Positions 4,871-41,304 of a DNA stretch of 51,060 nt are shown here, piece after piece. This DNA comes from a virus. The stretch lies in UHGV virus genome UHGV-0021437, one strand, 5' to 3'. A program made the position numbers and the translations under genes. Positions within the stretch are counted from its first letter, which is position 1, and each line of letters starts with the position of its first letter. The notes below the pieces were generated by a model. The model worked only from the letters and a program-made list of their open reading frames with translations, made no database searches and was not told the DNA's origin.

Positions 4871-5396
4871 ATTCCCCCATATATTTATTACATAAATCTA
4901 AAAGTTTGTCAAATACATCATGGTTAATGTCAGTTTCCCCTGTTAAATGCAATACCTCCGCTTCATCTAAATACCATTTCGCTTTCTTTAAATCTTCATA
5001 GCCATTTTTATATTTATGCCTACTCAAATACTTATACGCATTTACAATACAATAATCAGTTACGCTCTGATTTCCAAAAATTAACCGCATATTGTCAATA
5101 CATTCAATACTACAATGCCCCTCATAATGTTTTGGATGATTTACATTATCATGTTTGTTTGGTTTTGTTTCTTTCTCACAGCCACCGCAATCATTCATAC
5201 TTGCACCAAAACAACTATTACATTTTCTATTTTCTTTTTTCATTTCTGTTTCGCCCTTTCCAATAGTAGATGTTTTTAAAATTTCCTCTCTTACTTTATG
5301 TGTTATTACATTACATACGACTATTTCATTGCACGCTCTACCTATTTCTACGCATAATCCATCATATTCATATTCACAACCATCACATCTTCCCAT
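4845..5396 (-). CDS. Cys-rich protein with a DUF3310-like C-terminal domain
   Basis: HPKHYEGHCSIECID...YLSRHKYKNG resembles the phage DUF3310 family. N-terminus carries several CxxC clusters. Confidence 0.4.
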   Translation of the reverse strand: MGRCDGCEYEYDGLCVEIGRACNEIVVCNVITHKVREEILKTSTIGKGETEMKKENRKCNSCFGASMNDCGGCEKETKPNKHDNVNHPKHYEGHCSIECIDNMRLIFGNQSVTDYCIVNAYKYLSRHKYKNGYEDLKKAKWYLDEAEVLHLTGETDINHDVFDKLLDLCNKYMGEYEHGKGNE

Positions 5397-5401
5397 TTAT
5401 T

Positions 5402-6928
5402 TTACCTCGCCATTAATGTACTGTTATACTTTACAACTCTACTCATATATTTGTTTTTGTTGAATTCTAGCGCACCCTGTTCTTTTAAGATATCAATTAC
5501 TCTTGTTGTAACGCTTCTTCCTTTACATCTGTCATAGAAATCATCATAAGACTTGAATACAGCCTTTCTGCGCTCTTCTTCAATGGTTTCTGCGGCTTTT
5601 TCTCCTATACCCTTAATAATACTCAACCCTTGCTGTATAACGTCTTCTCCATCCATTTTACGCAATGAGGTTTTAGCTGAATAATTAACATGTGGCAACA
5701 TAACCACAGCACCATCTTTTACAGCAAATTGCGAATACTTAAATATATCTGCATCATTATCTGCATACTTCATTTTAACATACCAAAACTGTGTTGGGTA
5801 ATGTACTTTGTAATACATTTGGTCGATACTAATAAGCGCATACCCTGTGCTATGACCCTTATTGAAGCCATATATGAGCATACTTGCCCATATGTTATTT
5901 GTTTGTTCTTTTGTCAATCCCTCTTGTTTGCACCCTCTGTAAAAATCTTTTTTCATTTGTTCAATGATTGGAACATATTCTGGTTTTGTTAAATTTTCAG
6001 CTTTCTTCATAATCTTTAACATATCAAAACTCTGTTGTGCTGTTAAGTGTCCAACTTTCTGCGCTACTTCAACTGTTTGTTCTTGGTATAACATTGTTCC
6101 ATATGTTTCTTGTGTATATTTATAGTATGGTGTATTTTTATCTACTTTATCAGAAAGTTTATTATGTGCATATGTTTCATGCATATGTAACTGTAATGGG
6201 GCGGGTCTGTTCAATGCATTCACCGCTATAATATCATTAATACAATCACATTTAATCATATCAAGAATCTTTTTAGGTGCTGATTTCTCCATCTGAAATA
6301 TTCCATCTGTTCTGCCCTCTCTAAACCCCTCTATAACCTCCTTGCTTTCTTCATCCTCTTCTGTTATCTCATGTCCTGTCTTTTCTCTTAGCTCACGCAT
6401 TTCTGACATTGTTTTAAGTCCAAGCATATCAAACTTTACACAATTAATATGTTCTAAATCATCCTTGTCAAAACAGCTACTTAATGCTCCTGTTTTTCTA
6501 TCTCTCATGATAATACATGTATAATCACTTATGTCTGTTCCAACCACAGCAACTCCCGCCGCATGTTTTCCTAAGTATTTTATCTTTCCATACAACTTTG
6601 AGAAATGTTTTATAATGTTATCATATTTCTCATTGAACTCTTCTGTTCTGTATCCATTCAATAAGTTATTCATATTCAGTTCATCATCAACTATGAATCC
6701 CTTAATATAAGACTTAATTTCTGCAATTACTTTTTTGTTTTCATCAGCTTCAAACCAATCAACATCTTTTGTTGTTTTTAAGTTGCATACACTTGCTAAA
6801 TCATTCACAAGGTTGTCAACTCCATACATTCCGTAAGAACAAATTTGTATTGCTTTGTTTGGGTATTTGTTTATAACATAATCAATTACTTCCTGTCTCC
6901 TATCTCTTTCAAAGTCTAAGTCAATATC
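5402..6928 (-). CDS. dnaE: DNA polymerase III alpha (DnaE-type) exon 2: palm/fingers
   Basis: Translation upstream of the called Met continues as DIDLDFERDRRQEVIDYV, matching the DnaE PDFDIDF catalytic region. Also contains GKHAAGVAVVGTDISDY, KFDMLGLKT, ALNRPAPLQ, YQEQTVEVAQ and YGFNKGHSTGYALIS, all conserved DnaE motifs. A stop codon sits immediately 5' of GAT at 6928. Confidence 0.8.
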   Translation of the reverse strand, partial: DIDLDFERDRRQEVIDYVINKYPNKAIQICSYGMYGVDNLVNDLASVCNLKTTKDVDWFEADENKKVIAEIKSYIKGFIVDDELNMNNLLNGYRTEEFNEKYDNIIKHFSKLYGKIKYLGKHAAGVAVVGTDISDYTCIIMRDRKTGALSSCFDKDDLEHINCVKFDMLGLKTMSEMRELREKTGHEITEEDEESKEVIEGFREGRTDGIFQMEKSAPKKILDMIKCDCINDIIAVNALNRPAPLQLHMHETYAHNKLSDKVDKNTPYYKYTQETYGTMLYQEQTVEVAQKVGHLTAQQSFDMLKIMKKAENLTKPEYVPIIEQMKKDFYRGCKQEGLTKEQTNNIWASMLIYGFNKGHSTGYALISIDQMYYKVHYPTQFWYVKMKYADNDADIFKYSQFAVKDGAVVMLPHVNYSAKTSLRKMDGEDVIQQGLSIIKGIGEKAAETIEEERRKAVFKSYDDFYDRCKGRSVTTRVIDILKEQGALEFNKNKYMSRVVKYNSTLMAR

Positions 6929-7271
6929 CTACCTTTGTCGTTTGTTTCCAATCTGTCAAGGCTAGACTATATCTTCCACATATGTGGCATTCGCACTTCG
7001 GAACGGTGCTTATCTCCATCCCTACTCTTGTTACTCTCTTCACAAGCTAGTCGTTACACCTTTATATACTACTGTATATACTTGGCACGGTATTCCCTCA
7101 ATCTCACCGTTGCTGGTTTAGGGTTTCTTAGTCAGATTATTCGTCTATGGTCTATGCCCTATTATCCTGTTGTAACATTTCAATAAGGAGTCTTATTTTT
7201 CTGATACCGTTAGCATATTATAATAATACACACCATTAAGCAATGTTCACGAATGATGCCCAATTAAGTTT
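6929..7271 (-). ncRNA. group I self-splicing intron, ORF-less, about 343 nt
   Basis: Splits the DnaE gene between ...SLP and DIDLDF. The 5' exon ends in U and can pair as UGCCU with an internal guide GGGCA, giving the U.G wobble at the splice site. The intron ends in G before exon 2. It contains GAAGAUAUAGUC, the conserved P7/J8-7 element seen for example in the T4 td intron. Its GC content is above the local background, and stop codons occur in all frames. Confidence 0.7.
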
Positions 7272-8465
7272 AGGCAATGACTTCTTTTCCTTACGCATAA
7301 ATCTGCTAAAATCTAGGTTATATTTAATACTATCAACTTCTGTGATTCCTACTGCATATGCTACAAGACAATTACAGACAGAACCTCTTCCTTTTCCTGT
7401 TTCAATTCCATTTTCTTTCGCCCATGTTATATAATCCCTAACAATAAGAAAATAATCTGCAAAGCCATGATAGTTAATTACTTCCAATTCGTCTTTGCAT
7501 CTTTTCCAATATTCCTTACACCATTTGTTTCGCTTTTTCAATCCCTGTTTTGTTAATGTTTCAAGCTGTTTTGCTCCATCTTCTGATATCTTAGGAAGTT
7601 CTAACTCCAAACCATCCAATATGTTTTCTTCTACTTTGTTATATATTTCTTTCATGTTGTCTGCAAATCGTTCTGCAAGTTCCATTGGTCTTTTAAACTT
7701 CTTTTTGTAGATTTTTGCAAACCTTTCTGTTATCTCATATTCTGTAGGCATGTACCTTTCACCATATGTGTTTTTAACATCCAATGTTGTTTTTCCGATT
7801 TCATGCATTTTACAATATGTGTCAAAATCTTCTTTACTTCCAAAATGGGAATCACTTGTTAGAATACATTTTATTTTCTTTCTTTTTGCCATTCCCATTA
7901 ACTCATAGTCTGTTCTTTGCTGTGTACCCTGTGTATCTATCTTATATGGCTGTATTTCAACGTATAAGTCCTCTTTGAATATTTCCTTAAACTTATCCAA
8001 CAAACGCTCTGCTGTGCTTCTATGACCGTTCAGAATGGCTTGTGACGTTGCACTTGCAATACAAGCTGTTGTACATATAAGTCCATCTGAATACTTTTCT
8101 AATAACTTAAAATCTACTATTGGCTTGTAATAGAATTGTTTTGTGTTTGCTTCTGTCATAATGTGACATAAGTTTTTATACCCTTGCAAATTCTTAACAA
8201 ATAAATTCAAGTGGTAACTTTTTCTCTGTGGATTTTCTTTATTAAATTTTGGCTGAAAATATATTTCACATCCCATAACTGGTTTTATTCCAACTTCATT
8301 ACACGCTTGATAATGTTTTATTAATCCACTGATAGAACCATGGTTACTTATCCCTAAAGCTCTATAGCCTAATTCTTTTGCGTGTTTTGCTAGCTGTTCT
8401 GGTTTACCGAATCCATCAAATAATGAATATTCATCATGCCTATGTAAATCGAAAAAATTTCCCAT
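7272..8465 (-). CDS. dnaE: DNA polymerase III alpha (DnaE-type) exon 1: PHP domain and N-terminal palm
   Basis: PHP motif FFDLHRHDEYSLFDG...GISNHGS. Ends with ...RKEKKSLP at the site where bacterial DnaE has ERVSMP|DFDIDF. The track ORF 7236..8465 reads 11 extra codons into the intron. Confidence 0.8.
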
Positions 8466-8555: not shown

Positions 8556-8969
8556 CTACAATAGCTCTTTTAATTTTTCTTCTGTTCTTTCATAACCAAC
8601 TGTTCTTATTGCACTCTGTAACAATTCATATAATCTTCTTTGGTTTATACGTTTTTCATTTATATTATCTATTGAATCTACCCATTCTAAATTGCATAAT
8701 CTGTTATCATCTCTCACACCATTTTTATGATTTACTTGTTTTACGTCCCATTCTTCATCATAGCAAAAAGTCAACATAACCATTCTATGCACAAGCGTTG
8801 TTTCTTTCTTTCCATTCAATGAAGCAGAAATAAACAAATAACCATTAGTTGCCTTTTTCAAAGATAATATCTTTCCTTTTCTATTCTTTACTCTTCCATA
8901 ATTTGACACAAAATAATTTCTATTCAATGGGTATTCTTTCCATCTTTCTTTAATACAAATCACCTCCAT
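8556..8969 (-). CDS. free-standing HNH homing endonuclease (NUMOD4 + HNH_3)
   Basis: ERWKEYPLNRNYFVSNYGRVKN and VNHKNGVRDDNRLCNLEWV. Lies immediately upstream of the intron-containing dnaE. Confidence 0.75.
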   Translation of the reverse strand: MEVICIKERWKEYPLNRNYFVSNYGRVKNRKGKILSLKKATNGYLFISASLNGKKETTLVHRMVMLTFCYDEEWDVKQVNHKNGVRDDNRLCNLEWVDSIDNINEKRINQRRLYELLQSAIRTVGYERTEEKLKELL

Positions 8970-40940: not shown

Positions 40941-41013
40941 TGGATTATATAGGATTCGAACCTATAACTTACCGCTTATGAGGCGGTTGCTCTAACCATT
41001 GAACTAATAATCC
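40941..41013 (-). tRNA. tRNA with anticodon CAT (Met, or lysidine-modified Ile2)
   Basis: Cloverleaf with 7-bp acceptor stem GGATTAT/ATAATCC, D arm GTTC/GAGC, anticodon loop CTCATAA, T loop TTCGAAT. CCA is not encoded. The anticodon stem lacks the three G-C pairs of an initiator tRNA. Confidence 0.8.
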
Positions 41014-41099
41014 TTAATGTGTTGCTTTCGTGGCTTGCACACTACTCACAACACTTTAGCAAGAAAAGAAATTTGATATGCACACTTAAAGGTGTGCAA

Positions 41100-41171
41100 C
41101 TGCCTAGGTTGGAATCGAACCAACAAATCAAGGAGTCAAAGTCCTTTGCCTTTCCGTTTGGCTACTAGGCA
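41100..41171 (-). tRNA. tRNA-Gln (anticodon TTG)
   Basis: Acceptor stem TGCCTAG/CTAGGCA, anticodon loop CTTTGAC, T loop TTCGATT. CCA is not encoded. Confidence 0.8.
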
Positions 41172-41304
41172 ATATGTAGACTGTAAACACTACTATATGC
41201 ATGGGGATTTCATTTACAGCCTACGAGCTACAATAGAGAAAAAAATGCGCCTCGCATTAATGCCTCTGTGTTTTAATGACTTTAACACCTGTCAATGTTT
41301 TATT

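Follow-up and report, generated by a model that had tools for sequence, protein, structure and literature searches.

An ORF-less group I intron of IA2 type interrupts a phage family C DNA polymerase gene at its catalytic-aspartate codons

Group I introns are classical residents of phage DNA-metabolism genes, among them the genes of family A and family B DNA polymerases, and ORF-less derivatives are also known. The introns of T4 td, sunY and nrdB and those of Staphylococcus phage Twort self-splice in vitro, and in td the endonuclease ORF (I-TevI) is located in the P6a loop. The DNA polymerase introns of the Bacillus phages SPO1 and SP82 are group I introns that encode the HNH nicking enzymes I-HmuI and I-HmuII (cited in PMC3428280). 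In dnaE, the selfish elements described are inteins, for example those of the cyanobacterial split DnaE, which sit in conserved motifs and are removed to give an intact polymerase (PMC2677866, PMC4760082). Our full-text literature search, of incomplete coverage, returned only intein papers for dnaE, with no published report of a group I intron in this gene and no description of the intron subfamily presented here. This agrees with a first-pass annotation of the locus, which had called such an intron unusual for a family C polymerase. In principle an intron in dnaE is unsurprising to a specialist; what sets this one apart is its host gene, for which no report was found, together with a structural peculiarity by which a subclass may be recognised.

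The locus lies in a 51,060-nt stretch of gut-phage DNA (UHGV-0021437, hereafter the window). All large ORFs of these 51 kb are on the minus strand, and two tRNA genes are present, Met-CAT (40941..41013, −) and Gln-TTG (41099..41172, −). Since related IMG/VR contigs are about 50 kb long, the window is probably a near-complete phage genome. A megablast search with 1 kb around the insertion site against 50,697 phage records gave no match, and this collection thus does not include the phage.

Two adjacent minus-strand ORFs had been read in the first-pass annotation as the halves of one DnaE-type polymerase, separated by an ORF-less group I intron at the catalytic motif, and our analysis bears this out. 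The upstream ORF (8465..7236, −) reads ...FMRKEKKSLP and then continues through 11 more codons (KLNWASFVNIA) to a stop. The frame of the downstream ORF (6829..5402, −) is open upstream to position 6928 and reads DIDLDFERDRRQEVIDYV 5′ of the Met of this ORF; both boundaries are exactly as annotated. Excision of 7271..6929 (−), 343 nt, joins 7272 to 6928 and yields a DnaE of 906 aa, in which the insertion point lies between Pro398 and Asp399 (SLP↓DIDLDF; here and below the arrow marks the insertion point). Exon 1 (7272..8465, −) has 398 codons, covers the PHP domain and the beginning of the polymerase domain, and ends in ...AAG UCA UUG CCU (K S L P), its final base U7272 being the 5′ splice-site U. 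Exon 2 (5402..6928, −) has 508 codons plus a stop and opens with GAU AUU GAC UUA GAC UUU (D I D L D F). The spliced mRNA would thus contain ...AAGTCATTGCCT↓GATATTGACTTAGAC... and its product the junction peptide ...KKSLPDIDLDFER....

In Pol III alpha, the PDxD motif is the site of two of the three catalytic aspartates. The spliced 906-aa protein matches the Pfam families PHP (3.8e-44), DNA_pol3_alpha (8.2e-64), DNA_pol3_finger (3e-26) and HHH_6 (2.4e-14), and Pol III alpha of Thermus aquaticus (PDB 2hpi) with an E value of 3.5e-104. The alignment to 2hpi is ungapped over the junction (kkSLPDIDLDFerd to rvSMPDIDTDFsdr). By homology, the interrupted gene is therefore dnaE, encoding a family C polymerase alpha subunit, and the catalytic role of its aspartates is taken from the published Pol III alpha work. 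An in-frame UAG directly abuts the first Asp codon (GAU) of exon 2 and the next in-frame AUG follows 33 codons downstream, so the catalytic aspartates can be translated only after splicing.

The insert (6929..7271, −) has stops in all three frames and, with a GC content of 0.385, is richer in GC than the exons (0.325 and 0.332). It starts right after the exon U, carries GGGCA at nt 11-15, contains GAAGAUAUAGUC and closes with a G. DnaE inteins differ from this element, as they are in frame and are removed at the protein level; stops in all frames together with an RNA fold indicate removal at the RNA level. That the interruption is no intron at all, and is instead an intein, a translational bypass, a group II intron or an assembly chimera, has a negligible chance in our judgement and nothing in its favour beyond the interrupted ORF itself. 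The stops in three frames speak against an intein, 343 nt is far above known bypass gaps, and for a group II intron the insert is too short and gave no domain V/VI-type Rfam match. A chimera is contradicted by the recurrence of the insert: four isolated Clostridium phages have it, as do numerous independent assemblies, which come from several datasets.

These relatives were found by scanning IMG/VR with the spliced DnaE, which gave 58 loci of the same polymerase onto which the protein was mapped back, and by blastn with the insert, which found the isolated Clostridium phages CS266P1-P4. In the IMG/VR set, the dnaE gene is intron-less at 37 loci. Three intron-less genes with 96-97% protein identity (L003, L004 and L041) read TTGCC(A/G)↓GATATC and are otherwise unchanged, which is the junction predicted for the window. 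All insertions between residues 398 and 399 lie at one identical phosphodiester bond. Their lengths are 262, 343/344, 438, 656, 770 and 823/824 nt in IMG/VR and 840/842 nt in the four Clostridium phages. Dozens of independent contigs with this insert at one codon boundary, together with precise intron-less alleles, are far beyond chance.

When the insertions were aligned, they showed a common RNA core with one loop that holds an ORF, an ORF remnant or nothing. Insertions with an HNH ORF are 770-842 nt long, those with a decayed ORF 656 nt (L035) and 438 nt (L047), and ORF-less ones 262-344 nt; the ORF-less form of 342-344 nt occurs in eight distinct sequence variants. The ORF of the relatives is located in the P6a loop and encodes a protein of 162 aa (Pfam HNH_3, annotated as I-HmuI-like), of which in-frame-deleted remnants of 106 aa and 53 aa persist in L035 and L047, respectively. 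The window copy has no intron-encoded homing endonuclease (stops in all frames, and a P6a with a 4-nt loop) and is therefore not autonomously mobile. This allele series (empty, invaded, with a decaying endonuclease, ORF-less) is the textbook homing cycle, with the window at its final stage. In the ORF-bearing intron of L031 (nt 218-706) and its equivalents, we observed that the last residues of the HNH ORF are E R C N D, with the stop right after them (GAA AGG UGU AAC GAC UAG). Since these final codons and the stop are the P6′-J6/7-P7 core of the ribozyme, the 3′ end of the endonuclease gene is made of conserved sequence taken from the intron.

The splice sites follow group I rules. As proposed in the first-pass annotation, the end of the exon (UGCCU) can pair with the internal guide sequence GGGCA (7257..7261, −; intron nt 11-15) to form P1, with the wobble pair U7272.G7261 at the splice site. 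This helix covaries: where the exon changes from G to A, the intron changes from C to U (UGCCU/GGGCA to UACCU/GGGUA), and this happened twice independently, in the CS266 phages and in L199 as compared to L184. U is found at position −1 in 25/25 distinct intron alleles, compared to 3/37 without the intron (Fisher p = 2e-14); the intron alleles invariably have CCU as the Pro codon before the site, and the empty ones CCA (29), CCG (4), CCC (1) or CCU (3). A P10 pairing between exon 2 and the bases just 5′ of the guide spans 3-7 bp across members. In the window the candidate P10 has 3 bp, AUU (nt 8-10) with exon-2 GAU, and where the exon differs the intron compensates (GAUGUC/GACAUU in L184, GAUAU/AUAUC in L219). 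At the 3′ end, the final base of the intron is always G, as had been noted for the window copy, while the last three bases vary (UAG, AUG, UUG, GUG, AAG or GAG). Separate translation of exon 2 from these three bases was considered and rejected: some lineages have AUG there, but others UAG, AAG or GAG, with no base conserved except the final G.

We aligned 31 distinct members with MAFFT (alignment A1), drew the group I structure by hand, and then counted pairs. The hand-derived fold comprises P3 (nt 17-24 with 277-284), P4, P5, P5a, P6, P6a, P7, P7.1, P7.2, P8 and P9, with P7 (GACUA/UAGUC) pseudoknotted with P3. In the window, the P3 5′ strand CAUUCGUG (7248..7255, −) directly follows P1, and P2 is absent. 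Between P3 and J3/4 are two conserved hairpins (7213..7245, −), hpA (nt 27-38, loop GCUU) and hpB (nt 41-59). J3/4 (UAA) and the P4-P5 domain (7087..7212, −) follow, with P4 ACGGUAU/AUACCGU, P5 CCC/GGG and the P5a hairpin. This arm carries an optional extension of about 80 nt (nt 69-139) that is also present in the CS266 phages and missing in the minimal form of 262 nt. P6 (GCC/GGU) and P6a occupy 7058..7086 (−). The window P6a is an 18-nt hairpin (UAUAUAC-AGUA-GUAUAUA, 7080..7063) at the place where the relatives carry their endonuclease gene. The catalytic 3′ domain (6965..7057, −) consists of J6/7 GUAAC, P7 GACUA, P7.1, P7.2 (loop AGAUAAGCA), the P3 3′ strand UGCGAAUG, P8, J8/7 AAGAUA and P7′ UAGUC. 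The 3′ end of the intron (6929..6961, −) is made up of P9, capped by the tetraloop GAAA (6945-6948), and the terminal omega G (6929).

The alignment strongly supports this fold. Standard pairs make up 92.1% of cells in the 31 members, compared to 34-40% in a control in which the 3′ partners were slid by 1-3 columns, and 43/74 pairs changed on both sides, compared to 18-20 in the slid control. The covariation score was 0.327, against 0.04-0.06 for the slid control and 0.112 for column shuffles, none of which reached the observed value (0/500). Compensated pairs were found in P3 (6/8), P7.1 (5/5), P7.2 (5/7) and P8 (3/4). P4 and P7 are invariant among the 31 members, and such invariance is expected for the catalytic centre of group I introns. 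RNAalifold, blind to the hand drawing, recovered P3, P4, P6, P6a, P7.1 and P7.2. Even within the close clade of the eight ORF-less variants, compensatory changes keep the fold.

The two hairpins set these RNAs apart. They are present in every member (hpA with 4-5 bp and the loop GCUU(A), hpB with 5-9 bp), and compensatory changes occur in both; in L219, hpB is enlarged to a branched insert of about 90 nt. In td, sunY and Twort the P3 5′ strand is next to J3/4 and P4, an arrangement that none of the 31 members has. This insertion is a peripheral departure from IA2, not a core one, and as predicted from the alignment it would be a variation on a well-studied ribozyme core. Some members have an exact 11-nt tetraloop-receptor motif in P5 (in L215, CCUAAG...UAUGG), and nearly all, the window included, have GAAA as the loop of P9, so that the L9-P5 contact usual in such introns may form. 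Two GC dinucleotides, one within the hpA loop and one right before J3/4, show no variation in 31/31 members (A1 columns 51-52 and 83-84; window 7240-7241 and 7213-7214). RNAalifold pairs them, with no covariation either way, and they may be in tertiary contact. An alternative P3, pairing the GC before J3/4 with a GC in P3′ (columns 83-84 and 300-301), was rejected, as the partner bases change in the nrdD members described below while the GC stays fixed.

The first-pass annotation had proposed a covariance-model search and regarded the lack of a group I match as evidence against an intron. With Rfam RF00028 (Intron_gpI), no match was obtained in the window at the gathering score, nor in 6800-7400 at E <= 10; the Rfam scans gave only two noise matches. 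This part of the proposal thus turned out negative, but it is not decisive, since the proven T4 td intron also fails: its score is 36.9 bits where the threshold is 50, with the alignment confined to the 3′ part. For phage IA2 introns, a miss by RF00028 is therefore of little diagnostic weight. In 2025, a survey of introns in Bastillevirinae likewise described the Rfam and GISSD models as weak on phage introns (PMC11878797). The 3′ domain of the subfamily alone (P7-P7.1-P7.2-P3′-P8-P7′) then served to construct a covariance model, R1 (103 positions, 21 pairs). In the window R1 has a single match, at 6963-7060, with 109.9 bits. In known phages it matched over the whole model length four experimentally proven IA2 introns, those of T4 nrdD/sunY (44.3 bits, E about 1e-6), Twort orf142 (33.8 bits), T4 td (30.8 bits) and T4 nrdB (22.8 bits), and it aligned P7.1 and P7.2 of the subfamily to those of td, sunY and Twort. 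The likeness to the P7/J8-7 core of phage IA introns such as td, noticed in the first-pass annotation, was thereby recovered by the model. All core positions common to td, sunY and Twort are intact in the window copy. The intron is thus a real group I intron of IA2 type.

Its closest known relative is the intron of T4 nrdD (sunY), the top R1 match. Both share the J8/7-P7′ sequence GAAGAUAUAGUC, which includes the identical J8/7 AAGAUA, a similar P7.1 loop UGAUGAAUGUAA, and P7.2; in both, P1 is followed directly by P3 with no P2, and J3/4 UAA(A) by P4 ACGG. In sunY, however, P3 abuts J3/4, whereas the dnaE-intron subfamily has the two additional hairpins (about 37 nt) there. The host gene also differs, and the sunY ORF (I-TevII, GIY-YIG) is located after P7′, whereas the dnaE introns carry their HNH ORF in P6a. 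The introns of td and Twort orf142 share the IA2 core, P7.1, P7.2 and the order P3′-P8-J8/7. P7 (GACUA/UAGUC) is the same in td, sunY and Twort as in the window; this, like the J8/7 match, is a likeness of sequence only. The position of the ORF in P6a is common to td and the relatives of the window intron; td differs by having P2 and lacking hpA and hpB, neither td nor Twort orf142 has dnaE as host, and Rfam detects td weakly and the dnaE-intron subfamily not at all. With the SPO1/SP82 introns the likeness considered is one of gene and endonuclease: both are group I introns in a phage replicative polymerase, and the HNH protein of the relatives is I-HmuI-like, but the SPO1 polymerase belongs to family A instead of family C and the window copy has no endonuclease.

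The precise insertion, the covarying fold, the splice-site rules and the kinship to proven ribozymes are direct observations, and from these we infer that the window copy splices; the insert is very probably a functional group I intron. On the established group I pathway, exon UGCCU would pair with intron GGGCA in the folded pre-mRNA to form P1, with the U.G wobble at the cleavage site, and a free guanosine bound in P7 would attack after U7272. The terminal G6929 would next take the same binding site, and the 3′-OH of exon 1 would attack after G6929 while the short P10 holds exon 2. The outcome would be an mRNA for a single 906-aa DnaE with the SLPDIDLDF active site intact. In the unspliced precursor, the polymerase frame would stop 11 codons into the intron and leave the aspartates of exon 2 without a usable start.

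Some observations would suit a dead relic that no longer splices, with dnaE either a pseudogene or expressed as two non-covalently associated fragments (a split polymerase). The endonuclease gene is gone, the peripheral P9a stem has one A.A mismatch (common to L200 and L204), P10 has only 3 bp, there is no Rfam match, and the single-sequence MFE is unexceptional (z = -1.24). We nevertheless consider this improbable. Exon 2 has no usable start, as the UAG abuts the first Asp and translation from the first AUG would drop both catalytic aspartates, and no second polymerase ORF is evident in the list of large ORFs of the phage. The two exons show no damage and, across the full 906 residues, have 97% identity with alleles that lack the intron, the eight ORF-less variants preserve the fold by compensatory changes, and the core that td, sunY and Twort have in common is unbroken. 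Undamaged exons, a compensated fold and an intact shared core argue that splicing is kept by selection. The predicted fold is atypical, with two hairpins between P3 and J3/4 and no P2, and we counted this against a splicing intron.

Immediately upstream of dnaE is a free-standing ORF for a NUMOD4 + HNH_3 endonuclease of 137 aa (8556..8969, −). Of about 58 related loci, only the window and L033 (96% identical) have this ORF, and it shares 31% identity over 84 residues with the intron-encoded HNH of the relatives. It is probably another mobile homing endonuclease and could conceivably act as a helper in trans. Many group I introns need proteins in vivo, and one could picture an intron that does not self-splice and depends on a host chaperone, a maturase or this neighbouring HNH protein, which would make production of the polymerase conditional. 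The position of the ORF would fit such dependence and the additional hairpins could serve as a protein-binding platform, but the close structural relatives td, sunY, nrdB and Twort self-splice in vitro and most relatives with the same ORF-less intron lack the free-standing HNH gene. We give protein dependence even less of a chance than a dead relic, and the preferred reading stays that of a splicing group I intron.

As to its history, the intron is best explained as descending from a mobile ancestor: relatives have an I-HmuI-like HNH gene in P6a, and in the window this gene has been deleted, with a short capped hairpin left behind. The active-site codons were probably targeted because even divergent phage polymerases have conserved DNA there.

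More distant members were searched with the core pattern TAACGACTA-N25-40-GAGATAAGCAC. A 14-mer, GCTAACGGTATCAG, had also been tried as an IMG/VR probe, and was dropped as most of its matches (at least 120) were due to chance. The pattern matched at the same P↓DxDxDF boundary in more divergent DnaEs (ELP↓DIDIDL, PELP↓DVDTDF, KKMP↓DIDVDF and ISMP↓DIDSDF). The last of these, in L219, is on a metagenome contig of 169 kb and interrupts a canonical-looking DnaE (FERFLNPERISMPDIDSDF). In addition, the pattern matched genes of anaerobic ribonucleotide reductase (nrdD) in uncultured phages. These nrdD members belong to the same RNA subfamily (hpA, hpB, GAGAUAAGCAC loop) and comprise L183, L201, L203, L206 and L220 as well as L213, L222 and L223. 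One nrdD group has a sunY-like P1 context (exon AUGGGU, guide GCUCAU) and a GIY-YIG-like ORF in P6a, and the other a zinc-finger-like ORF after P7′. The presence of the subfamily RNA in both nrdD and dnaE indicates that the ribozyme core moved between these genes. In 185,579 bacterial and archaeal GTDB genomes, the pattern search gave nothing credible, only two chance-like matches without the 5′ half, and thus no evidence for such an intron in bacterial chromosomal dnaE.

From these data we tentatively put forward a broader reading, to which we would give about one chance in three: that RNAs with hpA and hpB, no P2 and the P7.2 loop GAGAUAAGCAC form a distinct, undescribed phage IA2 subclass that escapes Rfam and, in many phages of gut and rumen, has moved between nrdD and the codons for the catalytic Asp residues in family C polymerase genes, and that the window copy might still spread in trans via the neighbouring HNH protein. 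A parallel for the latter is T4 MobE, which mobilises the defunct nrdB intron in trans (PMC2790892).

Once the intron is recognised, four Clostridium phages and dozens of metagenomic phages regain one undivided gene for their replicative polymerase, and the active site of family C polymerases joins the conserved DNA-metabolism motifs colonised by homing introns. In all four intron-bearing Clostridium phages, both halves of DnaE are filed as 'hypothetical protein', with exon 2 begun at the final AUG of the intron. In the GenBank records of CS266P3 (OP172777, L001) and CS266P1 (OP172775, L002), for instance, the halves are two such CDSs, the second starting at this terminal AUG, and the intron is unannotated. 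The locus is also a concrete case of the Rfam group I model missing real phage introns, and the subfamily alignment or model could seed a better one. With empty, endonuclease-bearing, decaying and ORF-less alleles in close phages, the natural series is suited to the study of the homing cycle and of competition between phages.

Finally, some close relatives (L048, L051 and L049/L059) carry a second, unrelated insertion in dnaE at FNKGH↓STGY, which looks like a second group I intron. In L048 it is ORF-less and 345 nt long (4975-5319), and in L051 it has 1139 nt (5612-6750) with a LAGLIDADG_3 ORF. The site is a few residues from the classic DnaE split-intein site (...AEY↓CFNKSH). The window is uninterrupted at the equivalent place (codons 757/758, about 5851/5850).
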